DNA from: Candidatus Magasanikiibacteriota bacterium
GTDB taxonomy: Bacteria; Patescibacteriota; Patescibacteriia; Magasanikbacterales; GWA2-37-8
DNA: 64,000 nt
Direction: 5' to 3'
NCBI GenBank assembly: GCA_963840935.1
Contig: CAWJAS010000001.1
Span: 706,790 to 770,789, forward strand
Under the pieces are notes generated by a model. The model was not told where the DNA came from, made no database searches, and saw only the letters and a list, made by a program, of their open reading frames with translations. Below are positions 5,381 through 58,348 of this stretch, piece by piece; position 1 is the first letter of the stretch, and each line of letters opens with the position of its first letter. The translations under genes were made by a program, and so were the position numbers.

Positions 5381-5645
5381 TTTAGAAGACGAAATAAATA
5401 GAAAAATGTTACACTTTTATAAATTTGGATATGTATACAAATCCTGTTCAACCGCTCTCTAACAAAAACGACCGGATTCAACCAGTCAGTATCATTAATG
5501 CATATAATGATAGCAACTGCGAGATTGCTTGTCAAATAATTACACATTGTAAATTTTTGACCAGTCACTCGCGAGCGACTGGTTTTAATTTATGAATGAT
5601 ATATTTAATTATTAACTAGTTAAATATTTTTATAGTTAACGAATA

Positions 5646-5669
5646 TTTGTATACACAAGTGTATACAAA
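5646..5669. promoter_or_regulatory. Operator-like inverted repeat TTTGTATACA-N4-TGTATACAAA (copy 1 of 3)
   Basis: A 10-bp inverted repeat with a 4-bp spacer (caag). Exact copies lie at 5715..5738 and 5830..5853. Confidence 0.5.
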
Positions 5670-5714
5670 TAGTGAAATTCTCGAATTTGCTAAAATTAGC
5701 CAAATCTTATTTTT

Positions 5715-5738
5715 TTTGTATACACAAGTGTATACAAA
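5715..5738. promoter_or_regulatory. Operator-like inverted repeat (copy 2 of 3)
   Basis: Identical 24-mer TTTGTATACACAAGTGTATACAAA. Confidence 0.5.
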
Positions 5739-5820
5739 AAATTATCGAATATACATATATAGCATTAAAAAGAGAAGCAGAAAAAAGCGACTGCTCAAGT
5801 ATTGACAAGAGGAAGGCAAA

Positions 5821-6180
5821 ATGATAGAGTTTGTATACACAAGTGTATACAAACTTATGCCTGTTGACCCAAAAAATCAAAAAAACGAAGGCAATTCAAA
5901 AGAGATAATCAGGTTATCGGTTTCTGAAGCCGCTAAATTATTTGGCGTCAATTCGCAAACAATCAGAAGGGCCATACAGGCGCAAGAAATCACATACGCT
6001 GTTGTGGCCGGAAGATACAAAATCAATTTTGAAAGTTTGGTAAAATGGTCGCAAAGGCACACCACAATCAAAAATAAAATGGCACAACGCGGAATCGGGC
6101 AATATGTGGAAAGGTGGAAAATCAAAAATCCGATGTATTCGCCAAATCCCAAATCAGTCAAAAAATCACCAAACAAATAA
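5821..6180 (+). CDS. Small helix-turn-helix DNA-binding protein (excisionase/MerR-like HTH_17 type). The true start is probably the ATG at 5857.
   Basis: SVSEAAKLFGVNSQTIRRAIQAQEITYAVVAGRYKINFESLVKW is an excisionase-type HTH. The first 12 codons of the listed ORF are the operator repeat itself, so a downstream start (MPVDPKNQ...) is more plausible. Confidence 0.6.
   Translation: MIEFVYTSVYKLMPVDPKNQKNEGNSKEIIRLSVSEAAKLFGVNSQTIRRAIQAQEITYAVVAGRYKINFESLVKWSQRHTTIKNKMAQRGIGQYVERWKIKNPMYSPNPKSVKKSPNK
5830..5853. promoter_or_regulatory. Operator-like inverted repeat (copy 3 of 3), overlapping the -10/+1 of a putative promoter (TTGACA 5802-5807, 17-nt spacer, TAGAGT 5825-5830)
   Basis: Identical 24-mer placed immediately after a sigma70-like -35/-10 pair and just upstream of or inside the 5' end of the HTH gene. 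This is a classic autorepression geometry. Confidence 0.45.
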
Positions 6181-15960: not shown

Positions 15961-16695
15961 CTAACCGGTGGGTTTTTTTATTGTCATAATCTGCGCTTCG
16001 CCGTTTTTTATTTTTTGGCCCGCGCGATTGAAGTATTCTATTTTAATATTTTTGAACCCGGCATTTCTTGCCAGCGCGCGCAATTCCGAATCGGAAAATA
16101 TATGAATATATCGCGGGTAATCTTTTTTGCCCGTCGCTTTCCAGCCCACATAAACATCGCCCGCGTCATGGCCGGGTTTAATATTTTTTAATTGTTTTTC
16201 AATATTAAATTTATTTCTCGCCCAATCTTCAAGCAAATTCCAATTATCTATTTTTGCTGTTGCTCCATTTTTTAGCACGCGAAAAAGCTCATTCATAAAT
16301 TTTTGCCGTAGCTCATCTGACGGAATATGATGCATCACTGAAATGGAAATCGCAAAATCAAAATAATTATTTTTAAAAGGCAATTTCATGGCATCGGCCA
16401 CCACGAATTCAGCTTGTTTTGTTTTTATGTATGACGCGTATTTTTTTTTGCATAATTCGATTAATTTTTTTGAAATATCGACGCCGGTATAATAACCCCC
16501 TTGATTCATAATAGCGTTCGCCATAAGACCATTGCCACAGCCCAAATCAAGCGTTTTCATTTCGGTTTTTACGCCTTTAATCATTCGCATTTTTATTCCA
16601 CTCGGCTCAAAACGCGAAACATCCCATTCCTTGGCGATGGTATTGTAAATTCGGCTCATTTGCCGTACAATTGCTAATGCTTTACGTTTTTGCAT
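15961..16695 (-). CDS. Class I SAM-dependent methyltransferase
   Basis: Motif I is LDLGCGNGLMANAI and motif II is FDFAISISVMHHIP. Confidence 0.8.
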   Translation of the reverse strand: MQKRKALAIVRQMSRIYNTIAKEWDVSRFEPSGIKMRMIKGVKTEMKTLDLGCGNGLMANAIMNQGGYYTGVDISKKLIELCKKKYASYIKTKQAEFVVADAMKLPFKNNYFDFAISISVMHHIPSDELRQKFMNELFRVLKNGATAKIDNWNLLEDWARNKFNIEKQLKNIKPGHDAGDVYVGWKATGKKDYPRYIHIFSDSELRALARNAGFKNIKIEYFNRAGQKIKNGEAQIMTIKKPTG

Positions 16696-18510
16696 ATGGC
16701 TTTACTCCACGAAAAAATTATTAAAAAATTGCTTAGAAAAGTCCCCAAAACAGAGGATGATTTTGGCGCTGTTTTGCGTTCCGAATCCCGCGCTGTCAAA
16801 GGCAATCAAGGCACCCCGCGAAAATCGGATTTGCTTCGAGTATATCACGAACTTATTCAGGCGGGCAAGATAAAAAAATCTTCCGCTTTGGAATCTATAT
16901 TAATCAAGCGCGCGGTCAGAACATTGTCCGGCGTGGCGATTATTACGGTTTTAACAAAACCAAATGAGTGCCCGGGAAAGTGCATTTATTGCCCGAATGA
17001 AAAACAAATGCCAAAAAGCTATTTGAGCGATGAGCCGGCGGCGGCCAGAGCATTACTTTTAAATTTTGATCCATTTAAACAAGTAACTGCTCGAATTGAA
17101 GCGCTAAAAAATAACGGTCATCCGACCGATAAAATTGAACTAATTGTTAAAGGGGGCACTTGGAATGCTTATCCCCTGTCTTATCAATATTGGTTTATAT
17201 TGCGATGTTTTGAAGCGGCTAACTCATCATTGTCATTGCGAGCCCCGAAGGGGCGTGGCAATCCCCTGATAATTCAGGAAGCCGTGGGATTGCTTCGTCG
17301 CTCCACGGTCGCTCCTCGCAATGACAAAGTTACGTCTCTTCGCGCCGCTCTTCAAACAGCGCAGAAAAAAAACGAAAAAGCCAAGCACAGAATAATCGGC
17401 TTGACTTTGGAAACCAGACCGGATCACATCAATAAAAAAAATATTATTATAATGCGCGAACTTGGATGCACCAGAATTGAACTTGGCGTCCAAACGACTG
17501 ATGAAAAAATCTTGAAGCTGGTTAGGCGCGGGCACGGAACAGATGAAATAATCCAAGCCACGGAATTATTAAAAAATTACGGTTTTAAAGTTGATTATCA
17601 TTTGATGCCACAACTTCCCGGCTCGACTCCGGCCAAAGACGCGCGTATGCTTGAAGAAATTTTTGACAACCCGAACTACCGACCGGACATGATAAAAATT
17701 TACCCCTGCACGGTCACAAAAAATTCTCCACTTTATCTTTGGGTTAAATCAGGCAAATACAAACCATACACAGACAAAAAATTGATTGAACTTTTGATTA
17801 GTTTCAAAACCAAAATCCCCCGTTATGTCCGCATCTCTCGGCTTATCCGCGATATTCCGGGGCATCATATTGTTGCCGGAAACAAAATGACAAATTTGCG
17901 ACAAGTAATTCAAGCGGAAATGGCGCGTCGCGGACTCAAATGCAATTGCTTGCGTTGCCGTGAAGTCGGACATGCCAACCTCCCTCTCCTTGCCAAGGAG
18001 AGGGCTGGGGTGAGGTCCTCCTTTGAACCAAAACTATTTATTGATAAATATAAAGCTTCCGGCGGTACAGAATACTTTCTAAGCTTTGAAGACACAAAAC
18101 GAAAAATGGTGTTCGCTTTTTGCCGATTAAGAATATGTACGTCTGTCATCCTGAACGCAGTGAAGGATCTTGTTCCTCTTGTCATTCCCGCGTCCCGAAG
18201 GTATCCCTTTGGGAAAGGTGGAATCCAGTCACCGTTAGATCCCCGTTTACACGGGGATGACAACAAAATGGCATTTATTCGCGAGCTCCACACCTACGGA
18301 CAATCCTTATTATTAAAGCAAAAAAACAACAAGGCATTAAAACACATCCAGCACAAAGGGCTCGGCAAGAAACTTGTTAAAGAGGTTGAAAAAATCTGCA
18401 AAAAGAATAGAATAAATAAGCTGGCGGTAATATCGGGCGTTGGCGTGCGCGATTATTATCGCAAACTTGGATATAAATTAGAAAATACTTATTTGATTAA
18501 AAAAATTTAA
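16690..18510 (+). CDS. Elp3-like radical-SAM / GNAT protein (tRNA wobble-uridine modification type). It carries three in-frame palindromic repeat insertions.
   Basis: Radical-SAM cysteine motif (ECPGKCIYCPNE), a central zinc-finger-like region (CNCLRCREVG) and a C-terminal GNAT domain (GLGKKLVKEVEKICKKNRINKLAVISGVGVRDYYRKLGY). Its length of 606 aa is consistent with Elp3 plus about 80 aa of insertions. Confidence 0.7.
   Translation: MHMALLHEKIIKKLLRKVPKTEDDFGAVLRSESRAVKGNQGTPRKSDLLRVYHELIQAGKIKKSSALESILIKRAVRTLSGVAIITVLTKPNECPGKCIYCPNEKQMPKSYLSDEPAAARALLLNFDPFKQVTARIEALKNNGHPTDKIELIVKGGTWNAYPLSYQYWFILRCFEAANSSLSLRAPKGRGNPLIIQEAVGLLRRSTVAPRNDKVTSLRAALQTAQKKNEKAKHRIIGLTLETRPDHINKKNIIIMRELGCTRIELGVQTTDEKILKLVRRGHGTDEIIQATELLKNYGFKVDYHLMPQLPGSTPAKDARMLEEIFDNPNYRPDMIKIYPCTVTKNSPLYLWVKSGKYKPYTDKKLIELLISFKTKIPRYVRISRLIRDIPGHHIVAGNKMTNLRQVIQAEMARRGLKCNCLRCREVGHANLPLLAKERAGVRSSFEPKLFIDKYKASGGTEYFLSFEDTKRKMVFAFCRLRICTSVILNAVKDLVPLVIPASRRYPFGKGGIQSPLDPRLHGDDNKMAFIRELHTYGQSLLLKQKNNKALKHIQHKGLGKKLVKEVEKICKKNRINKLAVISGVGVRDYYRKLGYKLENTYLIKKI
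17230..17327. repeat. MITE-like nested palindromic element inserted in-frame in the Elp3-like CDS (13-bp perfect terminal inverted repeats ttgtcattgcgag / ctcgcaatgacaa)
   Basis: The TIRs enclose the cccc-gaa-gggg and ggcaatccc/gggattgcc sub-hairpins. It is translated as ...SLSLRAPKGRGNPLIIQEAVGLLRRSTVAPRNDKVTSL... Confidence 0.7.
17982..18012. repeat. Short palindromic element (ccctctccttg-N-caaggagaggg, then ctggggtgagg) in-frame in the Elp3-like CDS
   Basis: A perfect 11-bp inverted repeat, translated as HANLPLLAKERAGVRS between the CxCxRC motif and the downstream domain. Confidence 0.65.
18144..18262. repeat. Nested palindromic element (tgtcatcctgaacgcagtgaaggatc ... ccccgtttacacggggatgacaa) in-frame in the GNAT part of the Elp3-like CDS
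   Basis: Terminal inverted repeat ctgtcatcc / ggatgacaa, an internal hairpin ccccgt-ttac-acgggg, and a gtcattcccgcgtcccgaagg module. Translated as VILNAVKDLVPLVIPASRRYPFGKGGIQSPLDPRLHGDD. Confidence 0.65.
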
Positions 18511-18511
18511 T

Positions 18512-19501
18512 ATGCCCGAACACCATCCCTCACCCGAAGCCCGTGACGCCTCCTCCTTTGAATACTGGCTTGATAATGAGGTAAAAAGACAATATATAGA
18601 GCAAGTGACCGCTCTTAACGAGATTGGTCTTTTGGATATCTTGCCCGAAGCCGAAGCCAAGGGCGTGGTTGGTATTGACGGCAAGGAATACCCGGTCCCA
18701 AGCTGGGCGGAGATTAAGGCCGAATTAGAGAAAGACAAAGAAAAATATGATACCAAAAGAAAACAAGGTTTCACCGAACTACAGCTCACCTCTTTTGCTG
18801 TCCCGCTTGAACGATTAACCCACACTTTAGAGAAACAAATCCTCGAACACCACAAACAAGGCAAACTCCTGGCTACTAAGGACAAAGACACTGACCCGGA
18901 TGAACCATTGGAATTAGACACCAACCAACCCCTCTATACATGGGACGGTTGGCTCGACCCGAACGCCCCACAGGGCGAAAGAGGAGCCGATGTCACTGGC
19001 AAGTGCGTTTACTACCCCGAATCCTTTGATAAAAAAAACCACAACGGCCAGACCAAACAACAAATACTCGACAAACAAAACAAGAATAACTCTCCCTTCC
19101 CCGGCTGGAATGTCATCCTCCTGGAAGCCAGCCCGAATATACCGAGAGAGGGCAAAGGCAAAACCCTGAACAACAGAAAACAGTTGGAAGCAGGCAAAGA
19201 ACCACAGCAATATCTCAAAACCCTACAAACCGACCCAACCTACCGGCATGAACAAGGCCTGACTATCGAGGACTGGACAACCCAAATGCTTACTCACCTG
19301 CACAAAACCAACCAGGTGATTGATGATTACCAAGGCAAAGGCAGTATCTGCTATTGTGCCGGCATCTTTAATCCCGCTTTCGGCGACCTGGGCCGCGCCT
19401 GCTGGCGCCGCGACTACCGCCAGGCCTACTTGATCTGGTACGTTCCTGGCTCTCGGTACGACTTCGACGGTCTCCGCTCCGCGGTGGGGATTGGTCCTTG
19501 A
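18512..19501 (+). CDS. DGR target (variable) protein A. The C-terminal about 37 codons are the variable region VR1.
   Basis: 329 aa. It is about 93% identical to the inverted paralog at 24435..25424 except for the C-terminal about 40 aa. Its 3' end matches the template repeat with substitutions only at TR adenines. Confidence 0.8.
   Translation: MPEHHPSPEARDASSFEYWLDNEVKRQYIEQVTALNEIGLLDILPEAEAKGVVGIDGKEYPVPSWAEIKAELEKDKEKYDTKRKQGFTELQLTSFAVPLERLTHTLEKQILEHHKQGKLLATKDKDTDPDEPLELDTNQPLYTWDGWLDPNAPQGERGADVTGKCVYYPESFDKKNHNGQTKQQILDKQNKNNSPFPGWNVILLEASPNIPREGKGKTLNNRKQLEAGKEPQQYLKTLQTDPTYRHEQGLTIEDWTTQMLTHLHKTNQVIDDYQGKGSICYCAGIFNPAFGDLGRACWRRDYRQAYLIWYVPGSRYDFDGLRSAVGIGP
19376..19486 (+). repeat. 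DGR variable repeat VR1
   Basis: A 111-nt match to the TR (24025..24135, opposite strand). About 17 mismatches, every one at a TR adenine. A GC-rich hairpin (cccgccagc-atgag-gctggcggg) lies 40 bp downstream at 19530-19557. Confidence 0.85.
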
Positions 19502-19571
19502 TCTTTGGTTTTTAATTCGTATTATAAAACCCGCCAGCATGAGGCTGGCGGGTTTTAATTTATTCTAATTT

Positions 19572-22500
19572 TTAAAATCTACCGTGCCAAACATTGCCAC
19601 GACCGCCGGAATTGTAGGTCATCTGCGAGTTCAAATTATCACCAGTGCTCAAATCATCATAAATTTTCGTTTCCGGATCGCCCGAACCGTCGTCCAGCGC
19701 GCGCAAGCGCGTCAAAGCAATCGGGTCATTAGTCAGATTATCCGGCATCTTCACCGAACCGCCATATTGGCTGGCGACGGCCAATGTTTTGACCGGTAAA
19801 CCAACAAACATTTTTTTAACTCCGTCTAAAATCGCCGCTACCTGCTCTTCGCTTTCAATACCCGGGGCGTAATAAATACCATTGAGCATCAATGCCGGTT
19901 TTTTATCTTCATCCATGGCGAAACTACCAAAAATAAAACCAAGGTTTTCACTGGATGTTTGTTTAGGCGTATCATACAATGCTTCACCTTGCGGTTTTTC
20001 CATGGAGATAACAAACGATAGCGGGTCGGCGTTAATTGAGGCGACCCAATATTTATTTTCCGTGCCATGTTGAACCACCATATTGTAATTGTTGCTCGAA
20101 AAACAGCAAATTTTGCTGTCGGCAAAGCGCACCATATTCATCAGTTGTTTGGTTTTGTCCATATAGCGCAAACCGACGCGTTGGTGCTTTTTTTCTTCAC
20201 CGCGCGACATCGGCCGAACATAAGTCAATGTGTCTTGAATAGTTTGAAACGGCCCCTGCAAATGACTCTCCAATTCCTGCACCAAAGCCACATCGCTTTC
20301 GCGCAATCGCTCTTCGCCCAGCACCTGCATGCTGATAAAAGTAAAAATGGCGCTCGGTGATTTTTCTGTCAAGGCGATAATTTCTTGTCCGATGGCTTCG
20401 ATTTTTTGGCTTCGCTCACTTGCTGACAAGCCGGCAAACCGGTCTTCCACTTTCATTTCCGACACCATCTGGCGCTCATTTTCCAATTTGGTCAGTTCGG
20501 CCTGAATATTCGCGATTTGTTTTTCTAAACGCGGTTTGTTTTTTTCATCAGCCCTCTCCAGCCCTTCGCGCAAATTGCCCAGGGCTTTCTTTTTGCGCGC
20601 AATTTCACTAACCACGGCTTTGGCTCGCTCATTTCCGCCCCGCAATGCCACCAGCAAATCCTTTTTCATCTTTTTTAAGTCCAGCCGTTTTGCGTCCAGG
20701 CGGGGAATCAATTCTTCTCCGCGGATAACAATTCGCTCGTCGTCAAACACGCTGTCCAAAGTGGCTTCGAGCAACATTTTTTCGCCCAATTTTTTCCAAT
20801 TATCTTTAAGGTCATTTTTGGCGCGGTCACGCAGGTCAGGCCATTCTCTATCAATTTCTGAAATTAACTGTCCGCGATCAGCAAAGGTCTGCGCCGATGA
20901 CATCTGCGTTAAATATTTTTCAGCCATTTCAGTTTTTTCTTGCTGTAAATATTCGCGGTAGAGAGGGAATATCAAAACTACGCCGAGTTCGCCCCGGCCA
21001 AGAGCTCGGCCGATTTCTGCATTGGCATTTTTTATGGCCGCATTTTCACTTACCTCAAAACTCACTTCCTGATAAGCCCGTTCATTTTTTTCACCAAAAT
21101 AATGACCGTCTTCCAGCCGAGAACAAACCTCAGTTGTTTCGGTTTTTTTTAATCCGCCCCGCTCGAGCGCCGAAGCAAACGCATGCATCGGCTCTTTGTG
21201 CGTGCGCAATTTGGCAATCAAATCCAGCATTTCTTTGAATTTGGCAAAACTGTAATTGTTTATTAAATTGAAACGGTCATCCCCACCGTGGAGTAAATAA
21301 TAAATCATGGCCGAGTGTTCGTCGCGATTAAGGGCGGTAATAAGCGAGCGCGAGTCGGTAAATTTTTCAAACTCGGTTTGCTTGGAACGGATATCGGCCA
21401 CGCGTTCGGAAATATTTTTTGTCCGCCAATTCTTATCTTCGTAAATAAATTCCAAAATTTCTTTGCTCGGCATCACGCCGAGCTCTCCGACCACGCTCTG
21501 CAAAACTTCCAGCCGTCGATTTTCACTTTCCATCGTCACCGGCCCTTGTTTGTTTTCCGGCAATTTTTTTCGTTCAGACCGATTGGCTACTCCGCGCTCT
21601 TTCCACCACTCGGCCACATCTTTTGGCAAATAACCTTTGTCGCATAATTTGCCGAATAAATACAAAGCCAGATGATTGTTTAGGCGGGGGTCGCCGGCCA
21701 GGCGCAAAATTATGTCATTGCCTCGCCAGTCGTCAAAATTATCCAAAAATACTTTTATAACGCGAGGCAAATGTCCGGCTTCCATTTTTTCCGCCATATC
21801 GCCTGGCTCGCTTTCGTCGCGAATCAAATCCAACAGCAATTGGCGCGTATCCTCGCCCAGCGTACCGACGGCTTCGCTCAATTGTTTGGTAATAGCGCGT
21901 TCGTCAAATTTTTTGCGCTCCACCGAGACCTTTAATTCTTGATGTAAACGATTACGCACCGCCCGTCGCTGATTTTCTTCCTCTGATTTCTTTTCCACCA
22001 CCGCTTGGTGAAGCAGGGGCGCCAAAGCCAAATCCAATTCGCGCGACACTGCCGGCCGTTTGTCGTCGGGGATCAATGCCAAAAAATCCGCCCGATCTTT
22101 TTCGGGTAAAACCAATGCATAGTCGGCCAAAAGCTGTTTGTCACTGGTCGCTTTTTTAGCGATTTCATTCATGTCAGGCAAAGTGGATTTTTCAACCAAT
22201 TTTTTTTGCAAACCCAAAAGCATGGCATCTGCCAGCAAACTGGACGGAGCAACTTTGGGCACATTTTTACAAGCCGAAAGATATTTATCAGCGGTCTCCA
22301 TTTCCACATCCGGATACACACCGGCAACCAAACTCATTTTTGCCGCCCGCGCCATGGATAAGGCAGCCAAATCGGGAAACAATTCAGCCGTGTCTTCGGC
22401 TTTGGATATTAAAATTTTATACTGTCCTGTTGCCTCTTCGGTAGATAAATCATCTTGACTTCCACCGCCGGCTTCACTGTTAACTTTGGCCAAATCAGCA

Positions 22501-22679
22501 TCATAGCGCTCGCGCATAGCGCCGGTTGACCATGGTTGTTGCAAATTCAGTGCGTTGATGCGTAATTCTTGAGACCGTTTCCGCATTTCCGCGCGAATAT
22601 GTATGTTGCCAAATTCGGCCACAGATTTATTGTTGGCTTCTATGAAGTCCGATGGGTGTTGTCCTTCGCCTTTGCGCAT
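19572..22679 (-). CDS. Large (1,035 aa) hypothetical protein encoded immediately downstream of, and overlapping, the DGR reverse transcriptase. It has no recognisable catalytic motif and no Walker A.
   Basis: Long uninterrupted ORF with island-like GC (about 50%). The N-terminal two-thirds are K/E/R/L-rich and predicted helical. The C-terminal about 230 aa are beta-rich. Its start overlaps the RT stop by 40 nt, consistent with an operon. Confidence 0.65.
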   Translation of the reverse strand: MRKGEGQHPSDFIEANNKSVAEFGNIHIRAEMRKRSQELRINALNLQQPWSTGAMRERYDADLAKVNSEAGGGSQDDLSTEEATGQYKILISKAEDTAELFPDLAALSMARAAKMSLVAGVYPDVEMETADKYLSACKNVPKVAPSSLLADAMLLGLQKKLVEKSTLPDMNEIAKKATSDKQLLADYALVLPEKDRADFLALIPDDKRPAVSRELDLALAPLLHQAVVEKKSEEENQRRAVRNRLHQELKVSVERKKFDERAITKQLSEAVGTLGEDTRQLLLDLIRDESEPGDMAEKMEAGHLPRVIKVFLDNFDDWRGNDIILRLAGDPRLNNHLALYLFGKLCDKGYLPKDVAEWWKERGVANRSERKKLPENKQGPVTMESENRRLEVLQSVVGELGVMPSKEILEFIYEDKNWRTKNISERVADIRSKQTEFEKFTDSRSLITALNRDEHSAMIYYLLHGGDDRFNLINNYSFAKFKEMLDLIAKLRTHKEPMHAFASALERGGLKKTETTEVCSRLEDGHYFGEKNERAYQEVSFEVSENAAIKNANAEIGRALGRGELGVVLIFPLYREYLQQEKTEMAEKYLTQMSSAQTFADRGQLISEIDREWPDLRDRAKNDLKDNWKKLGEKMLLEATLDSVFDDERIVIRGEELIPRLDAKRLDLKKMKKDLLVALRGGNERAKAVVSEIARKKKALGNLREGLERADEKNKPRLEKQIANIQAELTKLENERQMVSEMKVEDRFAGLSASERSQKIEAIGQEIIALTEKSPSAIFTFISMQVLGEERLRESDVALVQELESHLQGPFQTIQDTLTYVRPMSRGEEKKHQRVGLRYMDKTKQLMNMVRFADSKICCFSSNNYNMVVQHGTENKYWVASINADPLSFVISMEKPQGEALYDTPKQTSSENLGFIFGSFAMDEDKKPALMLNGIYYAPGIESEEQVAAILDGVKKMFVGLPVKTLAVASQYGGSVKMPDNLTNDPIALTRLRALDDGSGDPETKIYDDLSTGDNLNSQMTYNSGGRGNVWHGRF

Positions 22680-23647
22680 ATCTTGTTTTTGATTAACCAG
22701 TTATAATTTTTTAGATGTTTAAGATGGTGTTGCTTTGCCAGACCATAATAGCTGGGTACATTCCGCCGATTCAATCGAGATTTTGCTCTGCGCCAAATTT
22801 TAGCTTTGAGCCGTCGGCCAGTAGGATAGATTTCTACGCCCAAAAAATGGATACCCCGCCGCACAGGTAATAATATATCATTTTTACGGTTTATTTCAAG
22901 TCCAAGAGCATTTTTTAAGAATATCAACACTCTCTCTCGTAAATCTTTTGTTCCTATTCTTGTCTGAGTTATTATTATAAAATCATCGCCATAACGAAGA
23001 TAAAATTGCGGTTTTAAAATATGTTTTACAAATCGATCCAATTCATTGAGATAAATATTGGCGAAAATCTGGCTGGTCAAATTGCCGATAGGGATTCCCC
23101 GCTGGTCAGCTTCTCTTTTGTTTTGTCCAGAGTGAATATAACTGCCAATAATTATTTTAAGCAGGTTAGTTGTTTTGGTATCTTTAATACGGCGCGCCAT
23201 AATGCAAAGCAATACATCATGCTTTACGCTGTCAAAAAACTTGGTAATATCCGCCCGCCAGATAAAACTTTGAGAATATTTTTTAAACATTTTTTCCGTT
23301 CGCGCGATTGCCCCAATCAATCCTTTTTCTTTACGGCAAGACCAAGCGTCGTAAATAAAAGTTTTGTCGTAAATCTGCACAAGATATTCATAAACCAAAC
23401 GATGAAAAACCCGATCGCGAACACTGGCGACCGCGATATCACGGCGTTTGTTATCCGTCACCGTAAAATGCTGATACGGACCATGTATATATTGCCCGTT
23501 GTTCAAGTCCGTAAAAAGCCCCCATAAATTGTTTTCCAAAAAATATTGAAACAAATCAAGTTCATTTGTTCTTCTTTTTCCTCGGCGAAATTCAAACCAA
23601 CTTTGCCAAATATTATTTAAACTTAAATCAACGGGCGCTTTAAACAT
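22640..23647 (-). CDS. DGR reverse transcriptase
   Basis: RT motifs including the YxDD box (YLRYGDDFII) and the DGR-RT-characteristic QGIPIGNLTSQIFANIYLNELD segment. It is 335 aa. Confidence 0.9.
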   Translation of the reverse strand: MFKAPVDLSLNNIWQSWFEFRRGKRRTNELDLFQYFLENNLWGLFTDLNNGQYIHGPYQHFTVTDNKRRDIAVASVRDRVFHRLVYEYLVQIYDKTFIYDAWSCRKEKGLIGAIARTEKMFKKYSQSFIWRADITKFFDSVKHDVLLCIMARRIKDTKTTNLLKIIIGSYIHSGQNKREADQRGIPIGNLTSQIFANIYLNELDRFVKHILKPQFYLRYGDDFIIITQTRIGTKDLRERVLIFLKNALGLEINRKNDILLPVRRGIHFLGVEIYPTGRRLKAKIWRRAKSRLNRRNVPSYYGLAKQHHLKHLKNYNWLIKNKICAKAKDNTHRTS

Positions 23648-23675
23648 AATATTCTTAATTGATTCATCTTAATAT

Positions 23676-24020
23676 ATGCTAACATTACCCATAATCAATC
23701 AGGTTTACGAGGTGTATAAAATAATGGCGGACATAAATATCCACACAGAAAAACGCTGGCGTTATTCATTGGGCTCAAGTTTGGAAAACACAATTTTAGA
23801 TTGTATGTCCGAACTGATCATGGCCAAAAATGCGCCAAAACCAATTAAGGCCGGTCATCTTATTCAGGCCGGCGCGCATTTAGAAATATCAATCTTAAAA
23901 TTGCGACTATTTTTGGAGTTAAAAATTGCCAATGAAACAAAAGTTTTTCAGGCGCAAGCCAAAATCCGAGAGATTGGAAGAATGCTCGGTGGCTGGCTGA
24001 AGTCCTTGCAAAATACATAA
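23676..24020 (+). CDS. avd: DGR accessory variability determinant (Avd, four-helix-bundle protein)
   Basis: 114 aa. The C-terminal region IREIGRMLGGWLKSL and the central RYSLGSSLENTILDCMSELIMA pattern resemble Bordetella phage bAvd (LIAEVGRILGSWIARV). It is immediately adjacent to the TR. Confidence 0.7.
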   Translation: MLTLPIINQVYEVYKIMADINIHTEKRWRYSLGSSLENTILDCMSELIMAKNAPKPIKAGHLIQAGAHLEISILKLRLFLELKIANETKVFQAQAKIREIGRMLGGWLKSLQNT

Positions 24021-24024
24021 ACCT

Positions 24025-24135
24025 CACCGCGGAGCGGAGACCGTTGTTGTCGTTCCGATTGCCAGGATCGTTCCTGTTCAAGTTGGCCTGGCGGTTGTCG
24101 CGGTTCCAGTAGGCGTTGCCCAGGTTGCCGAAAGC
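24025..24135 (-). repeat. DGR template repeat (TR). The sense (adenine-bearing) strand is the minus strand, and it is rich in AAC (Asn) codons.
   Basis: The minus-strand reading GCTTTCGGCAACCTGGGCAACGCCTACTGGAACCGCGACAACCGCCAGGCCAACTTGAACAGGAACGATCCTGGCAATCGGAACGACAACAACGGTCTCCGCTCCGCGGTG aligns to both VRs. All differences fall at its adenines. Confidence 0.9.
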
Positions 24136-24434
24136 ATTAGTGATAATATCCGTCCGTAAAATTGAATGACCGCGGTCAATCCAAAATTGCGCCTATTGCG
24201 CTAAACAAACCCGCGCGGGGGTATAGATATTACTCATCACGGTGGGATTTATGTGTAAGGGTTTACGCCACACGATATTTGCTAAAATATTTTAGAAATA
24301 CTTCGCGTTTTTTCGGCGTTTGAACATAGCGGCAGCCCGCCCCAAGGCGGGTGGCTTTTCACCGGGTATGTTATTTTTTTTAAAAACGAAAAACCCCAAA
24401 ACCAAAAGAAAAAAGAAAAAACAAAGGCCAAAGA

Positions 24435-25424
24435 TCAAGCACCCACCCCCACCGCGGAGCGGAGACCGCTGTCGTCGTACCGACTGCCAGGAACGCTCCT
24501 GACCAAGAAGGCCCGGCGGCCGTCGCGGTCCCAGCAGGCGTAGCCCAGGTTGCCGAAAGCGGGATTAAAGGTGCCGGCGAGGAAACAGGCACTGCCTTTG
24601 CCTTGGTAATTATCAATCACCTGGTTGGTTTTGTGCAGGTGAGTAAGCATTTGGGTGGTCCAATCCTCGATGGTCAGGCCTTGTTCATGCCGGTAGGTTG
24701 GGTCGGTTTGTAGGGTTTTGAGATATTGCTGTGGTTCTTTGCCTGCTTCCAACTGTTTTCTGTTGTTCAGGGTTTTGCCTTTGCCCTCTCTCGGTATATT
24801 CGGGCTGGCTTCCAAGAGGATGACATTCCAGCCGGGGAAGGGCGAGTTGTTTTTGTTTTGTTTGTCGATTATTTGTTGTTTGGTCTGGCCGTTATGGTTT
24901 TTCTCGTCAAAGGATTCGGGGTAGTAAACGCACTTGCCGGTAACATCGGCCCCTCTCTCGCCCTGTGGGGCGTTCGGGTCGAGCCATTCGTCCAAGGTGT
25001 AAAGGGGTTGGTTGGTGTCTAATTCCAATGGTTCGTCCGGGTCAGTGTCTTTGTCCTTGGTAGCCAGGAGTTTACCTTGTCTGTGGTGTTCGAGGATTTG
25101 TTTCTCTAAAGTGTGGGTTAATCGTTCAAGCGGGACAGCAAAAGAGGTGAGCTGTAGTTCGGTGAAACCTTGTTTTCTTTTGGTATCATATTTTTCTTTG
25201 TCTTTCTCTAATTCGGCCTTAATCTCCGTCCAGCTTGGGACCGGGTATTCTTTGCCGTCAATGCCAACCACGCCCTTGGCTTCGGCTTCGGGTAAGATAT
25301 CCAAAAGACCAATCTCGTTAAGAGCGGTCACTTGCTCTATGTATTGTCTTTTTACCTCATTCTCCAGCCAGTATTCAAAGGAGGAGGCGTCACGGGCTTC
25401 GGGTGAGGGGCGGTGTTCGGGCAT
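24435..25424 (-). CDS. DGR target (variable) protein B, an inverted paralog of protein A. Its C-terminus is VR2.
   Basis: 329 aa, near-identical to protein A until the last about 40 residues. Confidence 0.8.
   Translation of the reverse strand: MPEHRPSPEARDASSFEYWLENEVKRQYIEQVTALNEIGLLDILPEAEAKGVVGIDGKEYPVPSWTEIKAELEKDKEKYDTKRKQGFTELQLTSFAVPLERLTHTLEKQILEHHRQGKLLATKDKDTDPDEPLELDTNQPLYTLDEWLDPNAPQGERGADVTGKCVYYPESFDEKNHNGQTKQQIIDKQNKNNSPFPGWNVILLEASPNIPREGKGKTLNNRKQLEAGKEPQQYLKTLQTDPTYRHEQGLTIEDWTTQMLTHLHKTNQVIDNYQGKGSACFLAGTFNPAFGNLGYACWDRDGRRAFLVRSVPGSRYDDSGLRSAVGVGA
24450..24560 (-). repeat. DGR variable repeat VR2
   Basis: A 111-nt match to the TR with about 15 mismatches, all at TR adenines and at positions different from VR1. 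A downstream hairpin gcccgcc-ccaa-ggcgggt lies at 24347-24368. Confidence 0.85.
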
Positions 25425-25590
25425 ATTAAATTATAAAATAAGTATGTCGTCGAATTGACAAAAGTATGAATAAATAATAGCAAATATTATATACCATGTC
25501 CAACAAACGCGCAGACAAATAAATTTATCGAAAAATTGACAAAAAATACATAAAAGCTGATAATAAGGTAATTGAAAAAATAAAAAATTT

Positions 25591-56377: not shown

Positions 56378-58348
56378 TCATTCTTGATTCGGCACATCAT
56401 CGATTTTAACGCTCAATAGCTTCGAAATTCCATCCGAGGCCATGGCCACTCCATAAAGCGCGTCAACTGCGTGCATCGTCACTCGATTATGAGTAATCAA
56501 AATAAATTGAGCGTGCTTGGATAATTCGGAAATAATTTTGGTAAAACGAATTGTATTTGCTTCATCAAGAGCGGCTTCGACCTCGTCAAGCACCACAAAA
56601 GGCGAAGGATTATAATTCAAAACAGCACAAATTAAAGCAATGGAGGTGAGAGTGCGCTCCCCTCCAGACAAAGAATTCAAACTTTTTATTTTTTTACCCG
56701 GCGGATTGGCGGTCACTTCAATACCCATCAAAATCTTTTCTTTTTTATTTTTTAATCGAGTATTTTCCGCAGAAATAATTTGTTCTTGATTTTCAAAATC
56801 AATATTTTCGCCAACATTTTCCGGCACTTCTTCCTCGTACACTTCAACCAAATCCGCATTACCCCCTTCAAATAAAATATTAAAAAATCTGTTAAATTCT
56901 TTGCGTATATTTCTAAAAGCGACCACTCGTTTTGATTTCATCAAATCATCAAGTTCAGCGGACATTTTGGTCAAATCGGCTGTCGCCTGACGCAAGTCAG
57001 TCAACTGATTAAACAAGAAGTTAAATCTCTCTTTGGTGGTTTCGTATTCGCTTATCACTTCTTCGTCAATACCTCCGATTAAATTCAATTGGTATTTTAA
57101 TTTTTGAATTTCTAACGCCAATTTTTCATAATCTTCAACTTCCAAAATATCCTGGCGCCGGCCAATAATTGATTCCAAAGAAATATTCATGTCATTTCTC
57201 ACTTCTTCATTCAGCGATTCCGCTCTGGTTTCAAGCCGAGCCAAAGCCACCCTCAGGTCATTGCGAACCGTGGCAATGCCGTTCAAATCGTTTTGTTTAA
57301 TTTGCATTTGTTCTTGAAGAGAAAAAACATGTTGTTTCTTTTGTTCCTCGCGTTCATTAAAATCCCTCATTTCATTTTCGATTTTTTGGACTATGGCGAC
57401 TTTGGCGTTCATCTCGGCCATCAATCTTTCTTTCTCGCGATTTAATTCCGATAATTTTATTCCATACTCTTCAGGGCTCATTTCCACAAACGATAATTCG
57501 CGTTCAATTTGCGCCAACTCTTTGTCCAAATTTTGTTTTTCGGTTTCAACAAGCGCCCGTCTGGCAACATTTAACTCGCGCTTAACCTCCAAATCAGACA
57601 ATTCTTTTTTGGCTTGTCCAAGCATTTGTTCAATATCCAAAAGATTTTGCTGTTCCAGAGCAAGAGAACGTTGGCATTCTTTGATTCTATCTTCCGCCCC
57701 CATCATTATTTTTGTGGCAAAACTGATTGAACCAAAACGGTCTTTCCGCCACCCTCCTTTCATCACACCTCGCTTTTCAATCAAATCACCATTCAAGGTG
57801 ACCATGCGCGCCCGACCAATGCCGATTAGCTGGGCGGTTTTCATATCTTTCACCACCAATGTATTGCCAAGAACAAATTGAAAAATATTTTCAAATTTTG
57901 AATCAAATTTTATCAAATCAACCGCCTTGCCGACAACACCCGGCTCGTTTACTAATTCGTTTAAAACCGCGTCTTCCTGCCTGGCGGTAATTTTGTTAAT
58001 CGGTAAAAATGTGGCCACACCCAATTTGTTTTCTCGCAAATAATCAATCGCTCGCTTGGCAATATCATCCGTTTCCACCACCACCGAAGAAAGATTGCCT
58101 CCGGCAGCCACATCAAGAGCCAGCCGATTTACTTCGTCGGTCTCACCAAGCTCGGCGACAACACCGAATATTTTTCCAATTTGAGATTTGTTATTCAACA
58201 CCGCTTTTATGGCCGTAAGCCCGGAAACCTGCAAAAAATTCTGCTCTGATTGGTAGACCTGATCTAGCCAGGGATGTGCTAAGTGATGTGCCTCATGTGG
58301 TTTTAACAAAGCAGCAATCAGCGTTGAAGTATCAAATACTAGTCTCAT
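56378..58348 (-). CDS. smc: SMC (chromosome condensation/segregation ATPase) fragment. It has the hinge, second coiled-coil and C-terminal head only. The N-terminal Walker-A head and first coiled-coil are absent. The first about 40 aa look PIN-domain-like.
   Basis: Hinge is GKIFGVVAELGETDEVNRLALDVAAGGNLSSVVVETDDIAKRAIDYLRENKLGVATFLPINKI. The ABC signature is LSGGERTLTSIAL. Walker B and D-loop are VVLDEVEAALD. There is no GxxGxGKS anywhere. The N-terminus MRLVFDTSTLIAALL resembles the start of PIN (VapC) domains. Confidence 0.7.
   Translation of the reverse strand: MRLVFDTSTLIAALLKPHEAHHLAHPWLDQVYQSEQNFLQVSGLTAIKAVLNNKSQIGKIFGVVAELGETDEVNRLALDVAAGGNLSSVVVETDDIAKRAIDYLRENKLGVATFLPINKITARQEDAVLNELVNEPGVVGKAVDLIKFDSKFENIFQFVLGNTLVVKDMKTAQLIGIGRARMVTLNGDLIEKRGVMKGGWRKDRFGSISFATKIMMGAEDRIKECQRSLALEQQNLLDIEQMLGQAKKELSDLEVKRELNVARRALVETEKQNLDKELAQIERELSFVEMSPEEYGIKLSELNREKERLMAEMNAKVAIVQKIENEMRDFNEREEQKKQHVFSLQEQMQIKQNDLNGIATVRNDLRVALARLETRAESLNEEVRNDMNISLESIIGRRQDILEVEDYEKLALEIQKLKYQLNLIGGIDEEVISEYETTKERFNFLFNQLTDLRQATADLTKMSAELDDLMKSKRVVAFRNIRKEFNRFFNILFEGGNADLVEVYEEEVPENVGENIDFENQEQIISAENTRLKNKKEKILMGIEVTANPPGKKIKSLNSLSGGERTLTSIALICAVLNYNPSPFVVLDEVEAALDEANTIRFTKIISELSKHAQFILITHNRVTMHAVDALYGVAMASDGISKLLSVKIDDVPNQE

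Follow-up and report, generated by a model that had tools for sequence, protein, structure and literature searches.

It has been shown that CGTC-REPs, a class of repetitive extragenic palindromic (REP) sequences, carry a CGTC (often TGTC) tag, a stem that almost always starts with AT and a CCA tail, and that they occur mostly as head-to-head dimers, with a stem of 8-9 bp and a loop of 4-5 nt in the defined families (PMC3733652). The class includes dRS3 in Neisseria and the Rickettsia palindromic elements (RPEs) RPE-4 and RPE-6 of Rickettsia conorii, which equal CGTC-4 and CGTC-1, respectively (PMC3733652). Intragenic CGTC-REPs occur in frame and sometimes twice in one gene, with double insertions in uvrA and uvrB (PMC3733652); among the host genes, uvrABC, recBCD, and those for pseudouridine synthases are enriched (Di Nocera, De Gregorio & Rocco 2013, PMC3733652). 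Palindromic elements read in frame inside genes are also known from Rickettsia (Ogata 2000, 2002, as cited in PMC10969869 and PMC3733652). In Neisseria a 28-nt extension of dRS3, the NTS (CGTCATTCCCGCGMAVGCGGGAATCYRG, pattern CGTCATTCCCGCG..GGGAATCC; Chenal et al. 2025, PMC11893778), is bound by Ssn, a small GIY-YIG nuclease (cd10448) that cuts the adjacent single-stranded DNA (ssDNA); the ssn gene is typically flanked by such motifs, Ssn modulates transformation, and genes next to dRS3 show higher diversity (PMC11893778). Here we analyze three palindromic elements, E1, E2, and E3, that lie inside the Elp3 gene of a 64,000-nt stretch of DNA (the window) from a Candidatus Magasanikiibacteriota bacterium of the Candidate Phyla Radiation (CPR; assembly GCA_963840935.1, contig CAWJAS010000001.1, positions 706,790 to 770,789 of the forward strand). 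The observation is genuine and well supported, and the elements are probably selfish REP-type palindromic DNA that was recently gained and is tolerated in the form of disordered loop inserts in a functional Elp3.

The host gene codes for a radical-SAM plus GNAT enzyme of tRNA U34 modification. Its open reading frame (ORF) extends from 16690 to 18510; read from the ATG at 16696, which is probably the true start, it gives 604 aa, the same length as database protein P0001. The first-pass annotation was right in calling the gene Elp3-like, and its 606-aa coding sequence would be shortened accordingly (residue numbers below refer to the 606-aa frame from TTG 16690). Pfam domains found in the ORF are Radical_SAM, Radical_SAM_C, and Acetyltransf_1 (GNAT) and no others; solved Elp3 chains in the PDB match the protein at E = 1e-125 to 1e-80, with the match split into three stretches. 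An AlphaFold 2 (AF2) model built on 32 homologues gives TM-scores of 0.88-0.91 (target-normalised) against archaeal, bacterial, and eukaryotic Elp3. The radical-SAM cysteines Cys94/98/101 and the QHxGxG acetyl-CoA motif are invariant in the homologue alignment, and the protein thus combines the radical-SAM Cys cluster, a C-terminal GNAT domain with its acetyl-CoA motif, and the Elp3 fold. The named homologues are without exception from Patescibacteria/CPR. The reading frame stays open across E1, E2, and E3 and the gene remains in register, as had been noted in the first pass, and the core compared with the sister allele P0002 has a dN/dS of 0.05 at a dS of 0.15. Domains, fold, invariant motifs, and dN/dS together identify a working gene: Elp3 is intact, functional, and under strong purifying selection. 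The G+C content of the inserts is 56%, vs 40% in the remaining gene. Elp3 and a divergent methyltransferase gene (15961-16695, minus) begin back to back at 16695/16696 with zero intergenic bases, and therefore each promoter must sit within the coding sequence of the other gene.

E1 and E3 are assembled from TGTC-tagged hairpin units and E2 is a single palindrome (Table 1). E1 is bordered by a perfect 13-bp inverted repeat (TTGTCATTGCGAG/CTCGCAATGACAA, 17230-17242 and 17315-17327) and consists of a left unit, TGTC-ATTGC-loop-GCAAT-CCCC at 17231-17266, and a right unit on the minus strand at about 17286-17326; the TGTC tags point outward and the tails are CCCC and CCCA. It measures 96-98 nt by repeat ends and encodes residues 181-213 (LSLRAPKGRGNPLIIQEAVGLLRRSTVAPRNDK). 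In ssDNA form it is predicted to fold into one long hairpin of -28.3 kcal/mol (z = -5.95, with 0 of 200 shuffles equally stable). E3 shows the terminal repeat TGTCATCC/GGATGACA at 18144-18151 and 18255-18262 and the internal hairpin ATCCCCGT-ttac-ACGGGGAT. It is a composite of a single unit A (TGTC-ATCC-loop-GGAT-C, 18144-18169) and a doublet (18179-18263) with outward tags and 87% complementary arms, and the doublet contains TGTC-ATTCC..., a nested hairpin at 18193-18218, a GGAATCCA tail, and a minus-strand unit GTCATCCCCGTgtaaACGGGGATC ending at 18262. By repeat ends E3 is 119-120 nt long, and it encodes residues 485-525. E2, with the palindrome arms CCCTCTCCTTG/CAAGGAGAGGG, is a full-length copy of a 36-nt family with the consensus YCCCTCTCCTTnnnAAGGAGAGGGyTGGGGTGAGGT; it encodes residues at about 431-443 (LPLLAKERAGVRS), Elp3 using the PLLAKERAGVR frame. 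The inverted repeats confirm the three palindromes that the first-pass annotation had placed in Elp3, and its bounds for E1 stand; its E2 gives way to the 36-nt unit delimited from the listed copies, and its E3 resolves into single unit plus doublet.

TGTC tags are present at 17231, 18144, and 18180, and minus-strand tags end at 17326 and 18262. The stem starts with AT in all five units, and the combination of an 8-bp stem with a 4-nt loop is found only in GTC-ATCCCCGT-gtaa-ACGGGGAT-C (18238-18262, minus); when examined by hand, the unit ending at 18262 departs from the published degenerate pattern of Ssn-related motifs (SRM) at the last position only. A GGAATCCAG tail lies at 18220-18228, and both E1 and the doublet at 18179-18263 have a short C-rich tail and form head-to-head dimers. 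We have filed E1 and E3 as putative variant members of the CGTC/TGTC-tagged class, variant because of the SRM mismatch, the single canonical unit, and the lack of ssn in the window, and we do not claim that they are cleaved by Ssn. E2, judged by its sequence, belongs to a separate, very abundant, and untagged palindrome family.

The comparison with the described systems shows both likeness and difference. E1 and E3 share with CGTC-REPs the tag, the AT stem start, the C-rich tail, head-to-head dimers foldable as one hairpin, and occurrence in many phyla; the CGTC-REP survey, however, includes neither Patescibacteria nor Elp3, whereas here three insertions from at least two unrelated families lie in one gene. 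An NTS-like sequence (TGTCATTCCCGCG...GGAATCCAG) forms the left end of the E3 doublet and the GTCAT-hairpin-ATC design is common to both, but the published NTS repeats form intergenic clusters around genes while the elements here are in-frame inserts, and Ssn is not known to mobilise the repeats. From what the citing papers tell of the Rickettsia elements, the likeness lies in in-frame palindromic selfish DNA within housekeeping genes of a small genome, presumed to be compatible with the protein fold; in Elp3, too, the palindromes lie in frame within a gene that is still functional (open frame, dN/dS 0.05, fold). RPE-1 is given there as about 150 bp and Rickettsia-specific, whereas E1, E2, and E3 measure 36-120 nt, come from families found across phyla, and are of a kind that is piled at three Elp3 loops radiation-wide. 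REPINs and BIMEs are likewise doublets of inverted hairpin units that form a roughly 100-nt hairpin, non-autonomous and multi-copy; they have a GTAG tag and an associated RAYT and are extragenic, whereas the elements here have a TGTC tag, no RAYT or insertion sequence (IS) parent nearby, and an intragenic position. The elements had been called MITE-like (miniature inverted-repeat transposable elements) in the first pass. Inverted repeats are indeed present, but there is no flanking direct repeat or target-site duplication and no transposase or IS parent nearby, and we rejected the MITE identity for a REP-class one, with TGTC/CGTC hairpin doublets plus an untagged 36-nt palindrome.

Chance origin of the Elp3 palindromes is excluded. 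Six of the seven repeat-motif matches in the 64 kb fall inside the 1.8-kb Elp3 gene (P = 4e-9), and the two GTCAT...ATGAC pairs with extended complementarity in the window, vs 0.06 expected, are both in Elp3. A scan of the window for the single GTC-hairpin unit lacks power, since 13 matches were found vs 10 expected. Multiple copies in unrelated contexts were found across genomes; in the window there is only the candidate solo unit at 57255 (Table 1). At least 120 loci carry E1-type termini (GTCATTGCGAG-N50-80-CTCGCAATGAC; scan of one genome per species), and the matches listed come from Alpha-, Gamma-, and Deltaproteobacteria, Bacteroidota, Chloroflexota, Planctomycetota, Cyanobacteria, Patescibacteria, and Rickettsiales, the last with the metagenome-assembled genomes L032, L094, and L120. 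On CPR contigs the E1-type copies are intergenic, at gene ends, or near gene starts. The 36-nt element was found at at least 120 metagenome loci by a degenerate-core scan, with sharp ends and unrelated flanks. These numbers bear out the first-pass view that the repeats are of the small mobile palindromic kind, and the copies that it proposed to look for elsewhere exist in many other genomes, with no other clear one in the window. The composite architecture of E3 recurs in P0021 at another Elp3 loop (site 1), where a T-to-C / A-to-G compensatory pair preserves the terminal hairpin. E3 is missing in P0002, P0003, and P0006, and its exact form is seen only in the window assembly (P0001); a substitution-only search of the fetched loci gave no further copies of the E3 doublet, the known P0021 copy differing by indels.

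Boundaries and frames of the 36-nt family were taken from 124 copies among the matches listed. Within ORFs (at least 50 open codons on each side) there are 46 of the 124, mostly on contigs of 34-47% G+C. The host ORFs scanned against Pfam (n = 30) include UvrA (2), UvrB, UvrC (2), MutL, RecG, RecJ, RarA, a type I restriction subunit, ValRS (2), MnmA, KsgA (2), an RluD-like synthase, PNPase, Mur ligases (2), FemAB (2), PPDK, ATP synthase gamma, and surface proteins. Two more copies are located at the same sites as the scanned UvrB and UvrC copies, as indicated by their flanking peptides. The 36-nt element is open in five of six frames, yet 28 of the 46 intragenic copies share one, TSPQPSPxKGEG (P about 1e-10). 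This one-frame bias implies that the filter acts on the encoded peptide, and it agrees with the selection for frame preservation that the first-pass annotation had suggested. As a separate observation, the 36-nt element (L136-L255) is over-represented in nucleotide-excision-repair genes, with at least four independent sites in UvrA/B/C, and frequent in tRNA/rRNA enzymes; this recalls what was observed, and left unexplained, in 2013 for different REP families of different phyla.

In the AF2 model, pLDDT values below 50 are confined to residues 182-205, 432-443, and 488-522, which correspond to the inserts, and to the non-insert segments 74-79 and 537-556. Each of the three insert segments is flanked by confidently predicted helices or strands, and the inserts match gaps in the alignments to solved Elp3, for example MinElp3 140-144 and 400-403 and DmcElp3 369-380. 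They fall in a loop of the radical-SAM domain, in the linker after the CxCxRCRE motif, and in a beta-hairpin of the acetyltransferase domain. The first-pass proposal that the inserts would map to loops on Elp3 structures is therefore consistent with the model, which puts them at alignment gaps and low-pLDDT segments between confident secondary-structure elements. Its other proposal, that Elp3 is a preferred site, gained support as well, since dozens of CPR Elp3 carry different repeat families at the same three loops and neighbor genes are of constant length. In 32 aligned and 120 surveyed Elp3 homologues, repeat signatures were recognised at site 1 in about 29, at site 2 in about 13, and at site 3 in about 14 homologues, and at a fourth variable loop in none. 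The repeat-derived peptides at the three loops include SLR...RND, CHCE...AMT, VILNE...QND, VIPAKAGI, SFLRKQES...AGMT, HPELVSGS, PLLxKEG, and tandem heptamers. In the fetched related loci the length of Elp3 varies from 541 to 606 aa, while pyruvate kinase (479 aa), SHMT (411-420), methyltransferase (241-244), and glycosyltransferase (384-386) are steady. The tandem heptamers (GTGAACT)n are present in P0007 (L125) at site 3 and in P0008 and P0019 at sites 2 and 3, and are read as VNCELRTVNC or, in the opposite orientation, FTVHSSQFT.

The history of the inserts was examined against relatives. P0002 (locus L001) is the sister allele of the window Elp3 on the gene tree and is without E1, E2, and E3; the core-gene tree is ((((window, P0002), P0004), P0005), P0003), with P0006/P0011 and P0007/P0008 further out. 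The junction of insert 1 is identical in the window, P0003, P0006, and P0007, insert 1 is missing from P0002, and each carrier has an insert-1-less sister on this tree. Between the window and P0006, identity is 88.9% in insert 1 and 74.5% in the core, and at third codon positions 87.9% vs 54.2% (P = 4e-5); dS is 0.14 in insert 1 vs 1.39 in the host gene, ten-fold lower. We looked for a gene-conversion tract reaching into the flanks of E1 and found none, the raised similarity ending at the element borders. Similarity that exceeds the core and ends at the borders means that the element copies share a younger ancestor than the genes, or that there is constraint at the DNA level. The dN/dS of insert 1 is about 0.75, and its peptide is therefore itself free of selection; in P0003 the hairpin complementarity of the insert-1 copy has decayed without compensation, which fits passenger behavior.

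The variable sites measure 144 vs 78 nt (site 1), 57 vs 48 nt (site 2), and 141 vs 27 nt (site 3) in the window vs P0002, a net gain over the sister allele of +66, +9, and +114 nt. The effective lengths in multiples of 3 proposed in the first pass hold only as these net differences; measured by their repeat ends, E1 is 96-98 nt and E3 is 119-120 nt. Segment by segment, identity to P0002 is 0.955, 0.976, 0.712, and 0.954, the low value being that of the 114-nt spacer between E2 and E3 (residues 446-483; P = 3e-21), where dS is saturated. The simplest reading of these sequences is that the block from E2 to E3 may have been imported in one piece by recombination with a divergent allele; at least this block would then have arrived otherwise than by the separate transpositions implied in the first pass. 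The low dS of E1, its patchy distribution on the tree, and the 71% identity of the spacer together argue for a recent gain, at least partly by recombination. Another kind of repeat is found in palindrome-free relatives: P0002 (L001 3001-4626) and P0005 (L126 10001-11725) have the A-rich repeat AAAACATnAAAAC at Elp3 sites 1 and 2, read as KHKNIKT / KTLKHENIKT, and these loops therefore also gather a second type of repeat.

Table 1. Location of the Elp3 gene, its palindromic elements, and related features in the 64,000-nt window.
Feature	Position	Strand	Basis
Elp3 gene (radical-SAM + GNAT, tRNA U34 modification enzyme)	16696..18510	+	Pfam, PDB matches, AF2 model, dN/dS
E1: head-to-head doublet of two TGTC-tagged hairpin units	17230..17327	+	13-bp inverted repeat, hairpin z, presence/absence in relatives
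E2: full copy of the 36-nt palindromic element	17981..18016	+	comparison with at least 120 metagenome loci
E2-E3 spacer of Elp3, aa 446-483, 114 nt	18024..18137	+	divergent from sister allele
E3: composite of single unit + doublet	18144..18263	+	inverted repeats I4, I13, I14
Candidate solo E1-type unit, GTC-ATTGC-gaaccgtg-GCAAT-GCC	57255..57280	+	motif scan; inside smc

A passenger history that is compatible with these data would run as follows. The elements may have arrived after the split from the nearest known relative, via insertion and/or short-patch recombination with other CPR alleles, and only in-frame, stop-free, and benign readings would have survived. Transcription and translation would turn the inserts into disordered peptides in loops, and the enzyme would be affected little or not at all. 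Loss would be hard, as imprecise deletion within an essential reading frame should be counter-selected; the elements would persist because only benign open frames survive and because imprecise deletions are selected against.

Several observations weigh against this history. The remaining 62 kb of the window contain no other clear copy of E1, E2, or E3, although an active repeat family would be expected to have some. The window holds neither an Ssn gene nor another candidate for a mobilising gene, and a hidden Markov model (HMM) made from real GIY-YIG sequences found no ssn in the window or in CPR Elp3 loci. Neither a clean empty site nor a target duplication can be defined, since sites 1 and 2 of the sister allele are filled with variable sequence of another kind. 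As to class assignment, four of the five units have outer stems of 4-5 bp and structured loops of 8-25 nt, and the SRM pattern HGTCWYN(0-2)YYVSBRHN(0-5)WNVSBRGN(0-2)RNCYNB has 0 exact matches on either strand of the window. The placement in surface loops is a prediction from model confidence and alignment gaps, and we infer, rather than observe, the translation and neutrality of the inserts, the mobilising enzyme, and the arrival route.

The alternative that survives best, which we consider rather unlikely, is active site-specific targeting or exchange, in which a hairpin-recognising, Ssn-type single-strand nuclease would act on transforming DNA and the repeats would serve as break points that give rise to mosaic alleles. 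It would account for the identical junction of insert 1 in four lineages with insert-less sisters, for the ten-fold reduced dS and a similarity limited to the element with its flanks excluded, for the divergent 114-nt patch bounded exactly by E2 and E3, and for the repeat heads in the window and seven related loci, all but one of which are within Elp3. A precedent is provided by Neisseria, where Ssn cuts ssDNA beside the NTS and modulates transformation (PMC11893778). The absence of any ssn gene in view counts against it: besides the HMM result given above, a GIY-YIG regular expression and phmmer detected none in the window or in 120 loci, and the four weak GIY-YIG ORFs on CPR-like contigs are all without flanking units. 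The repeat-ssn-repeat arrangement is reproduced elsewhere among the fetched GIY-YIG genes, in L134 with GTCATGCCCGCGAAAGCGGGCATCC on either side and in L128 with several CGTCATTCCGGCG...GGAATCC units. Furthermore, the 36-nt family is present in many unrelated genes, and the same loops are home to several families that differ in their ends, and for the latter reason a tolerance filter fits better than sequence-specific targeting. We also note that most Ssn-like GIY-YIG genes (P0122-P0241) are on very short contigs of 0.5-2 kb; assemblies would be expected to break in this way if the gene, together with the repeats that flank it, is present in multiple copies. In a bolder form of the targeting idea, to which we give little credence, the Ssn/CGTC-class repeats together with the 36-nt repeats would be break points for short-patch recombination of transforming DNA in CPR. 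If so, genes such as Elp3 and uvrABC would be reassembled into mosaics one cassette at a time, the spread of the repeats from lineage to lineage, always at fixed positions, would resemble homing, and the diversification of protein loops would be a by-product of a nuclease-guided DNA-uptake filter.

An adaptive role, with the peptides or the DNA/RNA hairpins co-opted, e.g., for tRNA binding, mRNA stability, or translation, appears improbable. The same loops are repeatedly filled across CPR Elp3, the elements are better conserved than the synonymous sites of the host, the compensatory change in P0021 preserves the E3 terminal hairpin, and genes for nucleic-acid enzymes are enriched in intragenic repeats in the present data as well as in the earlier survey (PMC3733652). 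However, the insert-1 peptide is unconstrained by its dN/dS, the hairpin of P0003 lost complementarity uncompensated, unrelated families interchange at one loop, the closest relative is insert-free under equally strong purifying selection, and no Rfam family matches the region. Mis-assembly at repeats, or an incipient pseudogene, is very improbable: repeats are a classic source of chimeric assembly and the exact E3 form is restricted to the window assembly, but three independent assemblies, made from other samples, have insert 1 at this very site, the frame is open through all elements despite stops in four of six frames of E1 and five of six of E3, and the core dN/dS of 0.05 goes with catalytic motifs that are all intact. 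Removal before the mature protein by intron- or intein-like excision, for which strong hairpins with conserved ends could be processing signals, is hardly credible, given that the inserts, at 12-40 codons, fall short of intein size and show no intein blocks, that no Rfam intron or ribozyme matches (E <= 1), that all observed copies in intact genes are stop-free and frame-preserving, which is expected only if they are translated, and that the strong frame bias of the 36-nt copies points to selection on the encoded peptide.

We therefore return to selfish palindromic DNA tolerated in Elp3 loops as the favored reading. In-frame palindromic repeats as such are already known from the Rickettsia RPEs and the 2013 REP survey, and the Elp3 locus is an unusually dense example. 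In the literature searched, what appears to be new is the CPR setting and the phylum-wide role of Elp3 as a hot spot with three loops; the 36-nt family, for which we found no paper with its sequences, its bias toward one frame, and its hosts among repair and RNA enzymes; and the numbers showing an intragenic element younger than its host gene, along with a repeat-bounded mosaic patch. In-frame palindromic DNA has long been a Rickettsia curiosity, and this locus suggests that it occurs widely in the CPR. Such inserts inflate and fragment protein families and confuse CPR annotation and structure prediction, and they mark natural permissive sites for loop engineering in Elp3. The young element and the repeat-bounded patch offer a sequence-level handle on gene-fragment exchange in small-genome, DNA-scavenging bacteria.

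Some further features of the window are worth recording. The candidate solo unit at 57255-57280, similar to the left arm of E1, is the only possible E1-type copy outside Elp3 in the window. The surrounding smc ORF (56378-58348, minus; Pfam SMC_hinge/SMC_N) is only 656 aa long and begins at the hinge, so that a split or a frameshift of the gene is possible. A perfect 24-nt palindrome, TTTGTATACACAAGTGTATACAAA, is present three times within about 230 nt (5624-5855) in an apparently intergenic region, where the copies might serve as operators or as origin-like sites. The interval from Elp3 to the SHMT gene contains an island of about 7 kb (18504-25432) that is missing from all related loci and is a diversity-generating retroelement. 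It comprises a reverse transcriptase gene (22640-23647, minus), a template repeat (24019-24135), and a 1035-aa ORF without Pfam match. Its targets are two inverted 329-aa genes (18512-19501 and 24435-25424, 92% identical) with variable regions at 19376-19492 and 24447-24560, in which 17 of 17 and 19 of 20 template-to-variable mismatches, respectively, are at template adenines.

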